Assembly: GCA_947627685.1 (NCBI GenBank)
Contig: CANQWZ010000002.1
Location: forward strand, 1-46,020
Direction: 5' to 3'
DNA: 46,020 bases
DNA from: an uncultured Bacilli bacterium
Lineage (GTDB): Bacteria; Bacillota_I; Bacilli_A; ML615J-28; CAG-313
How positions within the stretch are numbered: position 1 is the stretch's first letter; every line of letters starts with the position of its first letter. The translations under genes were made by a program, and so were the position numbers. This document shows, piece by piece, positions 5,709 to 37,026 of this stretch. The notes under the pieces were generated by a model, which was not told the DNA's origin, made no database searches, and was given only the letters and a program-made list of their open reading frames with translations.

Positions 5709-5748
5709 AAAAAAAATAAAGCAGCAAGGCTAAAATAGCTTGCTGCTT
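5709..5748 (-). terminator. Rho-independent terminator ending the giant operon
   Basis: The minus strand has stem AAGCAGCAAG (5748-5739) pairing with CTTGCTGCTT (5728-5719), a 10-nt loop, then TATTTTTTTT. It begins 15 nt after the stop at 5763. Confidence 0.8.
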
Positions 5749-5762
5749 ATAAAAATTGTGCT

Positions 5763-8700
5763 TTAAGCTTCTACTTTTACTCCTTTTGCATAAGTTGCAA
5801 TTTCTTCGCCATCAGCATCATAAATTGTAACAGAATTAGCATTTTCTAATTGTTTTGAAGCTGTCATTTCAGTAATTTCACTTCCATCTGCTAACTCAGC
5901 TTTAAATGTTACATTAATATAAATATCTTTACCAGAAATATAAATATAAGTTGTTGTGCCATTTGCAGTAAAGCAAACTAAACGATCTACACCTTTTTCA
6001 AATATAGAACCAAGGGCAGTAGCAGGTTTAGAATCAGTACGAACATAAACATACATATCTGTTCCAAAATCATCTTCATTTTCCCCAACAACTATTATTC
6101 CAAGTGTTGCATCAAAATAACAAAGTTTTTCGCTAGAAGTACCTTTTAGAATAAAGAAACCAGTTTCTGGATCATATTGTTCAACTGTACCTTTTTTATC
6201 GCCGGCCATTTTACCATATTCATCAACTGTTATATTATCGTTCCACCATCCACCATTATGACTAGAAGTACCATAGGTATTAAATCCATAATAACTTCCA
6301 AGAAGAGGTGATTTTTCTTTCCATTTACAATAAACAGTAGTTGAAGCTTCAAGTGGTGTACCTTCAACATATGGTGTCTTATAATCTTGATCTGTATACC
6401 AACCATCAAATACTAAATCATTTTTCATTTCAGGTTTTACAAGTTCAGGTGTATAACCTACATAATATTCTTCTGCAACATCTTCCATTTCGTTGCCATA
6501 AACAACTTTGAAAGTAACTTTTTTAGCCCATTTAGCGTATAAAGTTGTTGATTCTGTAGGTAGATATTTACCATCTTCACCAAGTGTAACAAGCGTTTCG
6601 AATTGTGGATCTACATACCAACCAAGGAATTCATATTCAGGATTTGAAACAGTTGGTAATGTTATTGGAATATTTTTATTTACTTCTTGAGCAGGAGCTT
6701 CAGCTTTTTCATCTGTATCATAAGTAATTTTAACCATCGGCTTGTTAATTGTATAGCTCATATCATCTTTGTTGATAGTAATTTCAAAGAATTCATTATT
6801 AATATATAAATCAATAGTGTAAGATGAGCCATCAGCAGCCAAACTATATGTACCTTCTTGACCTAAATATGTTGCTTTTTTAACACCATCAAGTACTAAA
6901 GTATCTTCATTATTATGATATGTACCCCAATATCCATCTAATTCAACTAATTGCTTACCATCGTAACCAAATTCAGCAATTGTTTTGCCTTCAGAATCAG
7001 TTACAACTAATTTACTATCTTTAACATTATAGCATTCATTAGCAGGAATATCTTTGCCTGTTGCATCTTTGAATGATGCACCAAAATAAACAACACCATT
7101 ATATACGAAAATAGAATAAGTAGTAGTATCGTTATATTTATATTGAATAGCTATTGCCTTGTTACTATTCCAGTATGAAGCAACAATTTTAGAAGTAACG
7201 TCACCTTTTTCAAGTGGAGTAAGGAACCAAATTTCACTCCAAGCAGGTTTACCACTAACAGATTTATCTAAAATCATGATACCTGTTTCAGCATCAATGT
7301 ATCCTTGTAATTTAGTACTACTGCTAACTTCAAGAACAAATTTACCTGTTTTTGGATCATAATCTTTTACATACATTTTTACATCAGCAGAACCATTAAA
7401 TGGATAACTTGTATGTGGAGCTACACCATATGGATCAATATTAAGTTTAGAATTAGCTGAATAACTAGTATTACTTTCACCTGTTACAGCATCATTTTTT
7501 AGTCCAAAACTTGTTGCGCCATCATAATCATTATTATAAACAGGTCCATTTTCCCATTTAGCATAAATGGTTGTATCAGTGTTAATTACTGTTCCTGATT
7601 CCCATTCAGTGCCTTCTTGATAGTCGTTAGTTGTGTACCAACCAACAAAGATATGTTTTGCGAAAGTTGGAATTAAATCTTCTTCTTTTAAAACAGCCTT
7701 ATCGCCAACTGAATAAATTTCTTCGCCATTTTCCTCGCCATTATTATAAACAATAGTTAATCTAGCAGGTAAAGAATATTTAGCATAAATAGTTATATCA
7801 GCTGTTGGTGTATATTCATTAGGAACTGGTTGTTGATATGCTTGATCAAAGAACCAACCATTAAAGATATAACCTTTATCATCTAACTTGCCAATTTGAT
7901 CAACATTTGGAAGTGTATGGGAAACGTTGGCATTGTATTCTTGTGGATCCATTGGATCGTGATGTTCACCATTTTCAAATGTAACTGTAACCATATATAA
8001 TTCCATTTCAAATGAATGATCACCAGTAAGAGTTAAACGATAATATTCAGTTTCATCTTCTAGATATACATCAAAGTCATATTCATCATTTGATGATTTA
8101 GTATAAGTACCACTCTTACTTTGATATGTAATGTTACCCATACCATCTAAAACAATAGTATCATTATCTTTTGTATATGTGCCATATACATCATCTAATA
8201 CTACCGCATCACCATTTGATAAAGATGCCTTAGCAGTACCAAAAGCAATAATTTTTTCATTAGTTTTAGTATTAGTTATAACAACGGTCTTAGAAGCTTT
8301 TATTTCAGCAATTGTATCTAATTCATTGCCAGAAGTATCAGTCATTTTTACAGCTGAATAAATATTGTTACCATAACGAACAATTGTAAGATCACCATCT
8401 TCAGTATTTAAAACAATGAAGTGTAAATAATAATTATTGGCAGGAACTTTATCGCCAGTAGTAGGATTAATAACACAACCTATACCAACAAATTCTTTAA
8501 CTTTAAATGATGTTTCAGTTTGATATTTACTAAATACATAGAAATCAGTACCTATATCTAAATCTGTACTATAATGTGTCATTAAAATGCCACTTTCTTC
8601 ATCAAAATAGAATTTACGTTCTCTATTTGAACTATCATTCCAAGTAATTACGCCATTTTCATATTTAGTTACTTTACCAGTCCATTTACCGGTAATATTG

Positions 8701-35804: not shown

Positions 35805-36947
35805 TTATTTTATTTCAATTGATCCTTGCGAATCAGTTATTGTTGATGCCTCATCTTTAAGATAATACATGCCATCACTAACAATCATTAAATCTTCTTC
35901 ACGATTGAAATTATTTGGTAATTTTACTATTGTACAATCACCACTAAATTTAACATTTTTAAGCACAGAATTTTTCATTGATATACATATTCCCGCAACA
36001 TATATACGATATTGTTTAGAAAGGGTAATATCTATTTTAATGTGAACATCTTCAAAAGTTACATCTTCAATAGTTGATGATTCCATGTTACCAAACAAAC
36101 TAATATCTAAACGTCTTTTAGATTCATCTTCAAAATCATCTTTCCATTCATCAAATATGGTACTATATGATAAGACAAAATTAGAAATAGTATGATTGTT
36201 ACCTTTAAAGATATGATTTTTATAATCCTTAAAATTTAAAGTATCGCCTTGCATATCAATATCATTAGCCAAATAAATATTTTTACCTACGCTTGCTTTT
36301 AATTCTTTGGCAGTTGTTACTACTTCATAGACGCCTTCAATATATTCAACAAAAACCTTAATATCAACATTATCTTCACTACCACCTGGATGAACAAAGT
36401 TAGGATCCCATGGATTACCATTTTCATCTAAGTAGCCAATAGCTGTATAACCAATTCTTTTGTTTTTAAAATTTCTGCTATCTGAAAATGCACTACCTTG
36501 TGATGTAGTATATTTACCGAGTTCAACTACTTGGCCATTTTCATCATAATAACAAACAGTATACGTATAATTGCTTTTTTTCGACCATTTAGCATATAAT
36601 GTTAATTCATCTTCTACAAGTCTATCATTTCTAAAGTTCCACTCTTTTTTATAAACCATATTTTCACTACCAGCACCATCTACTTGATACCAGCCTTCAA
36701 ATTCATAGCCGTTTCTAACAACTTGAGCAGAGCTTAATTCAGTAGGAGCATGTATTAATAATGATCCACTTGTTGATTTATCGTAATATTGAACAATAGG
36801 TGCCGTACAGTTTTGATACGAACCACCTTCTAACATATAAACTACTTTAATCTTGTTACTATAATCAATTTGGTTATTTTTACATCCCGCAATTGTTGTC
36901 AAGATTAATAATGAAAATATAATGAAAAATATACGTTTTAATTTCAT
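35805..36947 (-). CDS. 380-aa lipoprotein, first gene of the operon: two Flg_new-type repeats plus a C-terminal domain of unknown function
   Basis: SD AAAGGAG. Signal peptide MKLKRIFFIIFSLLILTTIAGC. IKVVYMLEGG......NGYEFEGWYQVDG.......DELTLYAKW is a Listeria-Bacteroides repeat. A second, degenerate copy follows (YTVCYYDENGQVV...GYTAIGYLDENG). Confidence 0.75.
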   Translation of the reverse strand: MKLKRIFFIIFSLLILTTIAGCKNNQIDYSNKIKVVYMLEGGSYQNCTAPIVQYYDKSTSGSLLIHAPTELSSAQVVRNGYEFEGWYQVDGAGSENMVYKKEWNFRNDRLVEDELTLYAKWSKKSNYTYTVCYYDENGQVVELGKYTTSQGSAFSDSRNFKNKRIGYTAIGYLDENGNPWDPNFVHPGGSEDNVDIKVFVEYIEGVYEVVTTAKELKASVGKNIYLANDIDMQGDTLNFKDYKNHIFKGNNHTISNFVLSYSTIFDEWKDDFEDESKRRLDISLFGNMESSTIEDVTFEDVHIKIDITLSKQYRIYVAGICISMKNSVLKNVKFSGDCTIVKLPNNFNREEDLMIVSDGMYYLKDEASTITDSQGSIEIK

Positions 36948-36997
36948 TTTTCCTATACTCCTTTACTATATTATCGTAGCATTTGTTTTTCTTACTA

Positions 36998-37026
36998 ATT
37001 ATACTATATTTTGCTTTTTTATTCAA
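36998..37026 (-). promoter_or_regulatory. Near-consensus sigma-70-type promoter of the giant operon
   Basis: Minus strand reads TTGAAT (37026-37021), a 17-nt spacer aaaaaagcaaaatatag, then TATAAT (37003-36998), about 50 nt upstream of ATG 36947. Confidence 0.65.

Follow-up and report, generated by a model that had tools for sequence, protein, structure and literature searches.

A conserved operon probably serving membrane-anchored proteolysis and peptide import in genome-reduced gut Firmicutes

Genes for a giant surface protease, an oligopeptide permease and a series of large lipoproteins lie side by side in a 46-kb stretch of DNA from an uncultured Bacilli bacterium (the whole stretch analyzed, hereafter the window). 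This raises the question of whether they act together and, if so, in what process. The original prediction, made from the letters of the sequence, was that the locus captures, degrades and imports protein; our literature search found no paper describing this cluster.

From the ORF listing and gene spacing of the window, minus-strand genes were found to be tightly packed and unbroken from position 36947 to 5763, between a terminator/promoter pair at approximately 37.0-37.2 kb and a 3' terminator at 5.7 kb, i.e., a span of approximately 31 kb (Table 1). The order is Flg_new lipoprotein, oppA-oppB-oppC-oppD-oppF, 78-aa ORF, subtilase, and lipoproteins of 183, 744, 963, 1,535 and about 1,590 aa. 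An unbroken single-strand run of 14 ORFs had been proposed; the array stands, but it contains 13 genes, as the last one carries a 1-nt frameshift. A 1-nt deletion near 9932-9936 leaves this gene as two ORFs, 9932-10561 (209 aa) and 5763-9929; the frameshift is confirmed by the closest relative (L001), in which a single ORF runs through that point. The ORF spacing bore out the proposed gaps of 12-70 nt, with two overlaps (oppD/oppF and oppF/small ORF) and AGGAG-type ribosome-binding sites at most starts. Eight of the 13 products are lipoproteins, and surface-anchored protein accounts for about 8,700 of about 10,300 codons. The minus strand holds every gene of the window, and the co-directionality of the operon genes is in itself nothing special.

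Table 1. Positions of the operon genes and of the candidate signals that flank or interrupt them.
Feature	Position	Strand	Basis and remarks
Terminator of preceding (upstream) gene	37199-37237	-	dG -18.9
Candidate sigma-70-type promoter, TTGAAT-17-TATAAT	36998..37026	-	10/12 match
380-aa lipoprotein	35805..36947	-	Pfam/NCBIfam; lipobox IAGC; one Flg_new (InlB B-repeat) domain; C-terminal half without family
OppA-like lipoprotein, 876 aa	33152..35782	-	SBP_bac_5 (Pfam E 5e-27); unusually long
oppA-oppB stem-loop	33106..33140	-	dG -19, z -6.8
OppB permease	32074..33081	-	BPD_transp_1, E 6.5e-36
OppC permease	30909..32024	-	OppC_N + BPD_transp_1
OppD ATPase	29731..30894	-	ABC_tran + oligo_HPY
OppF ATPase	28641..29768	-	ABC_tran + oligo_HPY
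78-aa tail-anchored membrane protein	28421..28657	-	Basic N-terminus, invariant DDGxT.Y.M motif, C-terminal TM helix
2,491-aa subtilase	20924..28399	-	Lipobox, S8+PA+Fn3, BspA-type LRRs, helical stalk, C-terminal TM (Pfam)
183-aa lipoprotein	20359..20910	-	Fast-evolving; missing from one subclade
744-aa lipoprotein	18109..20343	-	Flg_new, one Ig-like domain, 550-aa core of LolA/LprG-like half-barrels (modelled)
963-aa lipoprotein	15202..18093	-	Paralogue of 744-aa protein; three N-terminal Ig-like repeats
1,535-aa lipoprotein	10582..15189	-	Tandem Big_3-type Ig-like repeats (aa about 22-680), then 850-aa all-beta C-terminal region (Pfam, self-hhalign)
Last gene, about 1,590-aa lipoprotein	5763..10561	-	Cys-rich N-terminal region; repeats of uncharacterised domain, small beta module, Flg_new pairs
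Intrinsic terminator, operon end	5709..5748	-	dG -16.2 kcal/mol, z -3.2, then T-run

The proposed promoter is a real match to the consensus, although matches of this grade in 30% GC DNA occur at chance frequency (104 found vs 120 expected) and by sequence alone it does not rise above that level. Its value derives from its position, 3' of the preceding gene's terminator and 50 nt ahead of the first start codon. At the promoter, neither a CodY-type box nor any other sign of a nutritional regulator turned up. The strong 3' terminator was confirmed by its stem energy and T-run; having a long loop, it was overlooked by the terminator scan and was recovered by folding. The oppA-oppB hairpin likewise proved to be real, and a hairpin occupies the same position in three relatives (L088, L089 and L090). 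It is probably a partial terminator or an mRNA stabiliser, which would give an excess of OppA. No other internal terminator stood out in a scan of the operon, where terminator-like sites occur at chance level and promoter-like sites at or below it, so that we found no internal signals splitting the region into unrelated transcripts. One promoter-like site (13904-13877, 11/12 match) could, together with the hairpin, modulate the transcript. With its compact gaps and no strong internal terminators, the region could be read as a single transcript running from the 37.0-kb promoter to the 5.7-kb terminator.

The largest product begins with a lipobox and pro-region, followed by an S8 domain (aa 210-680; Peptidase_S8, Pfam E 6e-41) with a PA insert (494-559), an Fn3_5 domain (716-837) and Ig-like domains; its C-terminal part comprises approximately 850 aa of BspA-type LRR_5 repeats (about aa 1385-2240), a helical stalk and a TM helix (aa about 2463-2485). 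The residues D219, H295, N391 and S620, i.e., the catalytic Asp-His-Ser and the oxyanion Asn, are invariant in 36 of 36 relatives. Residues 186-879 are homologous to ScpA/ScpB/SpyCEP (E 4e-60 to 6e-51), the best solved homologue being the C5a peptidase 7edd (E 4.3e-60), with SpyCEP/CEP A at E about 1e-57 to 4e-58. The catalytic residues, the PA insert with Fn3 after it and the similarity to characterised members are those of a cell-envelope proteinase (CEP). On these sequence grounds the protein is a genuine CEP/C5a-peptidase homologue with an active site that is both intact and invariant. It contains no LPXTG motif; at the C-terminus, KKKDLW follows a hydrophobic helix, and the N-terminal lipobox reads LMGC. 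None of the 13 products matched a rotamase/PrsA family, to which PrtM, the PrsA-like PPIase maturase of the lactococcal type, would belong. The closest solved homologues, C5a peptidase and SpyCEP, are highly specific cleavers of host proteins, not general caseinases. The gene for the 78-aa membrane protein, which matched no Pfam family, lies between oppF and the subtilase gene in 72 loci.

Searches against Pfam recovered the full Opp importer that had been proposed: an SBP_bac_5 lipoprotein, two BPD_transp_1 permeases (one with OppC_N) and two oligo_HPY ATPases, i.e., all five parts of an Opp/Dpp-type ABC peptide importer. The identity of OppD reaches 77-88% across loci of GC 29-57%. OppA itself is very divergent; it scored 74 bits against NCBIfam Opp4A, far below the cut-off of 650, and had no match in a PDB sequence search, and homologues of approximately 875 aa at 62-74% identity are common. 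Its specificity is predicted to be for peptides. SBP_bac_5 transporters can carry non-peptide ligands. An orthologue of the 380-aa Flg_new lipoprotein is encoded directly upstream of oppA in L088, L089 and L090.

The domain calls made for the lipoproteins from the sequence agree with the Pfam results, and the proposal that they are assembled from a shared module kit held in part. The 744- and 963-aa proteins are paralogues (hhalign E 7e-44 and E 8.6e-50), Flg_new and Ig-like domains recur among the lipoproteins, and a module of about 75-120 aa is common to the 1,535-aa protein and the last one, which has five Flg_new stretches (Pfam); the upstream 730-aa lipoprotein, however, showed no detectable paralogy to the 744/963 pair. 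In Foldseek, the AF2 model of the 744-aa protein (pLDDT 80.8) matched LolA, LprG, LppX and LprF with probability 1.0 but TM scores of only 0.38-0.49 in single-domain matches, and its core had no Pfam, PDB sequence or sequence-profile match. This possible resemblance of the modelled 744/963 core to LolA/LprG-like half-barrels is the sole lead on fold among the accessory lipoproteins; where the fold has been characterised, its ligands are lipids or acyl chains rather than proteins. The 1,535-aa protein (AF2 pLDDT 87.5) gave no convincing Foldseek match (TM 0.13 or less) and no PDB sequence match, and the 183-aa lipoprotein, whose gene is missing in L005, matched no family or PDB entry. None of the lipoprotein cores matched a characterised family of unrelated function. 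The core lipoprotein families are restricted to this cluster, which appears to encode five lipoprotein families without annotation.

Conservation of the neighbourhood in relatives, on which the original prediction hinged, proved to be unusually high. The order oppD-oppF-small ORF-subtilase-(183)-744-963-1535-last is collinear in 90 of 90 related loci, which span GC contents of 28-59% and two classes and have median gaps of 10-53 nt. The Flg_new-oppABCDF half is kept in all three contexts examined (L088, L089 and L090), including a 53% GC genome. Relatives of the 744-aa gene are present in 116 GTDB species genomes, and none was seen outside this context among the 80 loci retrieved. Across loci, the surface proteins share 28-63% identity vs 65-88% for the Opp ATPases. 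Among the carriers are RF39 (Bacilli) and Christensenellales CAG-314, two gut lineages whose genomes measure 1.4-1.7 Mb; the operon therefore takes up approximately 2% of such a genome. An RF39 reference genome that carries it (1.69 Mb) was reported to be without amino-acid biosynthesis and dependent on oligopeptide uptake (PMC7301438), and the genome of the type species of the CAG-314 carrier genus is given as 1.4 Mbp (PMC8035907). The hosts include humans, mice, chickens, ruminants and rabbits, a variety more in keeping with a general nutritional role than with a target peculiar to one host.

Taken together, and with somewhat better than even confidence, we read the locus as a conserved operon for membrane-anchored proteolysis and import in genome-reduced gut Firmicutes; it is probably their main route for harvesting amino acids from outside protein. 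The bacterium from which the window comes is itself probably RF39-like. Judging from gene content and linkage, the approximately 850-aa LRR region of the subtilase and the Ig-, Flg_new- and LolA-like domains of the lipoproteins would hold substrate or build a surface scaffold. The subtilase, as a PrtP/C5a-peptidase-type CEP anchored by its pro-region lipobox and by a C-terminal TM helix behind the helical stalk, not by sortase, would cut the substrate protein. The long OppA lipoprotein would gather the peptides, the hairpin after oppA allowing for its excess, and OppBCDF would import them. The 78-aa protein may tie the membrane anchor of the subtilase to the permease. This arrangement suggests that the lipoproteins bind substrate, that the parts are physically coupled and that the system serves nutrition. 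Counting against a nutritional reading are the LRR_5, Flg_new and Ig-like modules, which are typical of adhesins, the divergence of OppA, the specific host-cleaving homologues of the protease, the lipid-binding LolA/LprG-like fold and the missing nutritional regulator signal.

A role in colonisation and immune evasion we consider rather unlikely. Here, the lipoproteins, rich in LRR, Flg_new and Ig modules, would serve as adhesins that attach to host mucus or cells or to other microbes, the C5a-peptidase/SpyCEP-like protease would cleave specific host defence proteins such as IgA, chemokines or complement, and the opp genes would share the locus only for the sake of co-regulation or signalling. 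The best solved protease homologues are indeed a C5a peptidase and the chemokine protease SpyCEP; BspA-type LRR_5, InlB B-repeats and Big_2/Big_3 are classical adhesin modules; and the surface proteins evolve much faster than the Opp ATPases, as expected under host or phage pressure. The locus is found in the same order, however, in bacteria of mammals and birds, which argues against one host-specific target, and adhesion alone does not explain an invariant linkage to a complete Opp across GC 28-59%. Less probable still is an envelope-building module, in which the giant lipoproteins form a surface coat or scaffold, the subtilase processes or sheds them as in mycoplasma adhesin endoproteolysis, the LolA/LprG-like lipoproteins handle lipids or lipoproteins and Opp recycles the released peptides. 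The lipoprotein-rich make-up of the operon, the restriction of the core families to it and the fold matches of the 744/963 core, the only confident ones, all speak for such a module. These matches are single-domain and of low TM score, however, the protease, with its PA, Fn3 and LRR parts, is built like CEPs that capture substrate, and self-processing needs no dedicated importer. We regard as very improbable a device for feeding on neighbours, by which a genome-reduced bacterium would attach to other gut microbes by means of its LRR and Ig lipoproteins, break down the proteins on their surface and take up the resulting peptides. The carrier lineages have small genomes and many auxotrophies, partner-dependent lifestyles have been proposed for them, and genomes of that size invest very heavily in this locus. 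Pfam/NCBIfam searches of the cluster, however, detected no domain of a cell-wall hydrolase or toxin, and the gut offers plenty of dietary and host protein, so that a simpler reading suffices. The idea that an opp operon lies beside unrelated surface-protein genes of the leading strand by chance, with which the shared direction of all window genes and internal promoter-like matches such as 13904-13877 would agree, is effectively refuted by synteny, i.e., the collinear loci in two classes with their compact gaps, and the internal promoter- and terminator-like sites do not exceed chance.

Taking proteolysis and import as the preferred reading, we tentatively propose a broader and more speculative picture. 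The subtilase, the 78-aa protein and the five lipoprotein families might constitute one undescribed surface machine physically linked to the Opp permease, amounting to a Gram-positive “protein utilisation locus” in which substrate is captured, or peptides are channelled to OppA, by LolA-like troughs or LRR/Ig arrays. As a whole, the 31-kb unit might have passed between RF39 (Bacilli) and Christensenellales (Clostridia), and might be a key adaptation of uncultured, genome-reduced auxotrophs to living on host, dietary or microbial protein. If the parts do form one machine, it would be the first protein-directed equivalent of a polysaccharide utilisation locus (PUL) in Gram-positive-type bacteria. 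Among gut bacteria, RF39 and the families of Christensenellales with small genomes are abundant and uncultured, and their lifestyle is still debated. A locus that occupies approximately 2% of such genomes and keeps its gene order over more than 100 species is very likely central to feeding or attachment. It offers testable targets, i.e., the protease, ligand binding by OppA and the five unannotated lipoprotein families, and suggests protein- or peptide-based media for cultivating the carriers.

Compared with known systems, the cluster is best described as an apparent variant of the CEP+Opp proteolytic system. Like that of lactic acid bacteria (LAB; PrtP/PrtS, PrtM, Opp and intracellular peptidases), it pairs a surface-anchored S8 subtilase, having a PA insert, Fn3-like domains and then a helical region, with a lipoprotein OppA and import by OppBCDF, and its carriers are amino-acid auxotrophs. 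LAB are not known to encode the protease and Opp in a single operon. The LAB protease is LPXTG/wall-anchored and needs the PPIase PrtM, whereas the present one has a lipobox and a C-terminal TM helix, with no PPIase encoded; unlike in LAB, an 850-aa LRR region is fused to the protease, and five further lipoprotein families and the 78-aa membrane protein are invariantly linked. The handing of peptides by a cell-envelope proteinase to OppA is established logic in LAB (PMC7783315). ScpA/ScpB and SpyCEP, the best homologues of aa 186-879, have the S8, PA and Fn3 arrangement in common with the subtilase, but these streptococcal proteins are stand-alone, sortase-anchored virulence factors with narrow host targets, without LRR fusion, Opp linkage or accessory lipoproteins. 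Bacteroidota PULs share the logic of surface binding lipoproteins, a surface hydrolase and an importer encoded together. Porphyromonas gingivalis RagAB (SusCD-like), with gingipains, reportedly applies this logic to peptides (bioRxiv 10.1101/755678). Unlike PULs and RagAB, the present locus has a Gram-positive-type envelope, an ABC importer and other protein families, and no product gave a Pfam match to a SusC/TonB-dependent transporter or SusD homologue. Hence, of the predicted capture, degradation and import locus, the CEP-type protease, full Opp and conserved linkage stand, and the parallel with PULs is an analogy only. In Treponema denticola, dentilisin (PrcB-PrcA-PrtP) is a lipoprotein subtilase encoded in an operon with accessory lipoproteins that assemble on the surface; likened by description, the two systems share this co-encoding, and dentilisin comprises three genes without an importer. 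The Mycoplasma MIB-MIP pair combines a surface capture protein with a protease that targets immunoglobulin and is not an S8 subtilase, and wall-reduced, genome-reduced Bacilli of this group have oversized, multifunctional OppA lipoproteins. By description, our cluster would share with these the capture-and-protease logic and has a similarly oversized OppA, its protease being, unlike MIP, of the S8 family.

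Every gene of the window, whose GC content is approximately 30%, lies on the minus strand. From 36947 to 5763, the genes form an unbroken series with gaps of 12-70 nt, two overlaps and AGGAG-type ribosome-binding sites at most starts. The original prediction was of 14 ORFs with one promoter, one 3' terminator and a single stem-loop between oppA and oppB. These signals were all located, with coordinates and folding energies as tabulated, and the compact series was confirmed; the gene count, however, is 13, as a 1-nt deletion splits the last gene. Promoter-like and terminator-like matches within the region were given no weight for or against, since their number was at or below shuffle expectation. 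We infer that the whole region is read as one transcript. The top promoter-like match of the scanned 5-41.5 kb (TTGAAA-16-TG-TATAAT, 11/12, extended -10) lies within the 1,535-aa gene at 13877-13904 (-) and may reflect either chance or an internal promoter serving the distal genes. In some relatives, the gap ahead of the last gene reaches 591 nt. A CodY-box scan found none at the promoter and an overall count under chance.

Mapped features of the window, and cluster products with families assigned by Pfam and NCBIfam
Feature	Position	Strand	Details
Hairpin ending the preceding gene (730-aa lipoprotein)	37237-37199	-	strong, dG -18.9
Promoter match TTGAAT-17-TATAAT	37026-36998	-	50 nt ahead of first ATG
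oppA-oppB stem-loop	33140-33106	-	sole strong internal one; dG -19, z -6.8
Hairpin then T-run, past last stop codon	5748-5709	-	dG -16.2
tRNA gene	818-905	-	single Rfam match of the whole window
380-aa lipoprotein			Flg_new
78-aa protein			tail-anchored, membrane; no family
2,491-aa protein (subtilase)			Peptidase_S8 (aa 210-680) with inserted PA, fn3_5, Ig-like, nine LRR_5 (BspA-type) stretches, helical tail, C-terminal hydrophobic anchor
183-aa lipoprotein			no family or PDB-sequence match
744-aa lipoprotein			Flg_new and Ig
963-aa lipoprotein			Ig
1,535-aa lipoprotein			Big_3
~1,590-aa lipoprotein (last gene)			five Flg_new stretches

The deletion, at a short A-run near 9932-9936 (GGAAAGTAA where GGAAAAGTA was expected), breaks the gene of the ~1,590-aa lipoprotein, both pieces of which are one ORF in the closest relative. 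It could represent an assembly error, a pseudogene or surface-protein phase variation. A Mycoplasma-type genetic code was ruled out, as ORFs read through up to 2,491 aa with table 11; RF39 genes have been reported to be correctly read with TGA as a stop codon (PMC7301438).

Inspection of the sequences by eye revealed a lipobox in 8 of the 13 products. Residues 186-879 of the subtilase aligned to C5a peptidase, SpyCEP and a cell-envelope proteinase (CEP), with E values of 4e-60 to 6e-51. Its catalytic Asp, His, Asn and Ser were unchanged in 36/36 relatives, so selection keeps the protease active.

Homologues of the 744-aa lipoprotein were all MAG proteins, either "hypothetical" or without a name. 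Among GTDB species, each scanned through a single genome, 116 had a relative; 80 loci were retrieved, and downstream gene order was alike in the contexts of hits at 63%, 55%, 45%, 45% and 37% identity. The conserved neighbourhood that would be expected of the predicted locus was borne out by tBLASTn and ORF assignment: the order oppD-oppF-small ORF-subtilase-(183)-744-963-1535-last was collinear in 90 loci, with zero rearrangements, median intergenic gaps of 10-53 nt and locus GC contents spanning 28% to 59%. The 183-aa gene was absent from one subclade. The upstream half (Flg_new lipoprotein, oppA, oppB, oppC, oppD, oppF) and the hairpin past oppA were both kept in 3/3 contexts examined, one of which was at 53% GC. 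Identity dropped from cytoplasmic to exposed products, i.e., OppD 77-88%, OppA 62-74%, subtilase 48-69%, 744 36-63%, 1,535 28-59% and 183 22-35%. In one related locus (L089:1-8547), an additional paralogue of the subtilase (2,492 aa), preceded by a 1,436-aa Big_3 protein and followed by a 223-aa protein, lies directly upstream of the main cluster, indicating that parts of the system can duplicate. A high-GC relative (L088:5882-8230) carries a divergent 782-aa Peptidase_M28 gene upstream of the cluster, which is not conserved elsewhere and possibly encodes another extracellular peptidase.

Searches of Pfam, NCBIfam and PDB sequences, using single sequences and family profiles, matched the accessory families (the 183-, 744-, 963-, 1,535-, ~1,590-, 380- and 730-aa lipoproteins and the 78-aa protein) to generic Ig-like and Flg_new domains only. 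A match of the lipoprotein cores to a characterised family of unrelated function, which would have counted against the original prediction, was not found. hhalign identified the 744- and 963-aa lipoproteins as paralogues (E 7e-44 and E 8.6e-50). In the AlphaFold model of the former (pLDDT 80.8), one domain matched Big_2, and the core resembled LolA, LprG, LppX and LprF with a Foldseek probability of 1.0, but a TM of just 0.38-0.49. This core had no match in Pfam or PDB sequences. With the 744 family as profile, searching 1.84 billion representatives yielded no distant relatives of the core; among the matches listed, the core occurred only in ~60-70 full-length clusters and 963-type paralogues, the remainder covering the Ig domain alone. 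The 1,535-aa protein consists of Big_3-like tandem repeats followed by an all-beta region of 850 aa, which was confidently modelled (pLDDT 87.5). This C-terminal region was without a sequence neighbour, and Foldseek returned generic beta-propeller-like matches only (TM <= 0.13), none of them a convincing structural neighbour. A module of ~75-120 aa is common to the 1,535-aa and last proteins. The "module kit" first proposed is thus real with respect to the 744/963 paralogy and the 1,535/last module, but looser than claimed: the 744/963 module was not supported in the upstream 730-aa lipoprotein, whose paralogy to 744/963 was undetectable. The 730-aa gene (37238-39430, -) stands separate, with its own terminator and no Pfam family. 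Its product and that of the last gene have similar Cys-rich N-termini, and one subclade has a last cluster gene that instead matches the 730-aa lipoprotein.

Low-GC loci came from MAGs labelled Bacilli, Mollicutes and Acholeplasmatales, and higher-GC loci from MAGs labelled Christensenella, Christensenellaceae, Clostridia, Ca. Fimimonas and Ca. Gallimonas. All sources were gut, from humans, mice, chickens, ruminants, deer and rabbits. Carrier taxonomy followed the GTDB assignments quoted in papers, NCBI being unreliable (e.g., Ca. Fimimonas under Myxococcaceae). Among the carriers, UQAI01 (locus L051) corresponds to HG1.1, an RF39 reference genome of 1.69 Mb. RF39 has been described as missing several amino-acid pathways, and its published metabolic model has oligopeptide uptake followed by cleavage by PepF (PMC7301438). 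Ca. Fimimonas is GTDB genus CAG-1435 of Christensenellales family CAG-314, with a type species genome of 1.4 Mbp (PMC8035907). Both carrier groups, RF39 and Christensenellales, are uncultured and genome-reduced. The 31-kb unit is present in both RF39 (Bacilli) and Christensenellales (Clostridia), and neighbour-joining analysis of the subtilase placed the low-GC loci in a single clade nested among higher-GC lineages. Together with the 77-88% identity of OppD across classes, this nesting suggests that the entire unit was long ago transferred between classes, with subsequent GC amelioration.

Elsewhere in the window, a Macro-domain protein (259 aa) and a 283-aa protein overlap (4074-5643, -); in the latter, inspection by eye shows motifs like those of sirtuins (GAGAG, TTNVDHQ, CPFCG), whereas Pfam gave no match, and the pair is reminiscent of Firmicutes sirtuin-macrodomain ADP-ribosylation pairs. 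At 39674-41032 (-) and 41511-44200 (-), a Schlafen/AlbA_2 and HATPase_c_4 protein adjoins a pair of secreted proteins (of 164 and 727 aa) without family match. The tRNA gene neighbours DUF2130, a GlmU-like nucleotidyltransferase and UppP/BacA, and in the related locus L090 a Mur ligase adjoins the cluster. These neighbours and this ligase together suggest that the organism still makes peptidoglycan.

A surface proteolysis-plus-import system, as originally proposed, is the best-supported reading of the cluster because of the CEP homology and intact active site, the full set of Opp components, the invariant protease-Opp linkage, the auxotrophic, small-genome carriers and the spread over very different hosts. 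In such a system, the very divergent OppA would be specific for peptides and the lipoproteins would capture substrate. A role in colonisation and immune evasion is retained as an alternative, given that the nearest solved homologues of the protease are narrow-specificity virulence factors and that the LRR, Flg_new and Ig modules resemble those of adhesins. So too is a role in the envelope or in lipid handling: the LolA/LprG-like resemblance is the lipoproteins' sole fold clue, and in known proteins this fold binds lipids. Chance adjacency of opp and surface-protein genes is excluded by synteny.

Our literature search found no description of the gene set, of its carriers with it or of a "protein/peptide utilisation locus". 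The interest of the cluster lies in its size, its conservation and its uncultured, poorly understood carriers. We rate the putative proteolysis-plus-import cluster as belonging among the CEP+Opp proteolytic systems, as a variant for which no description has so far been found. The domain order of the subtilase parallels the PR(+PA)-A/B-H layout given for lactococcal PrtP (PMC7783315). Unlike PrtP, however, it has a lipobox and TM helix in place of wall anchoring and carries inserted LRRs of ~850 aa, and the cluster is without a gene for a PrtM-like PPIase. The logic is like that of the CEP+Opp system of lactic acid bacteria, whereas here the genes form one conserved, putative operon with additional cluster-specific lipoproteins.
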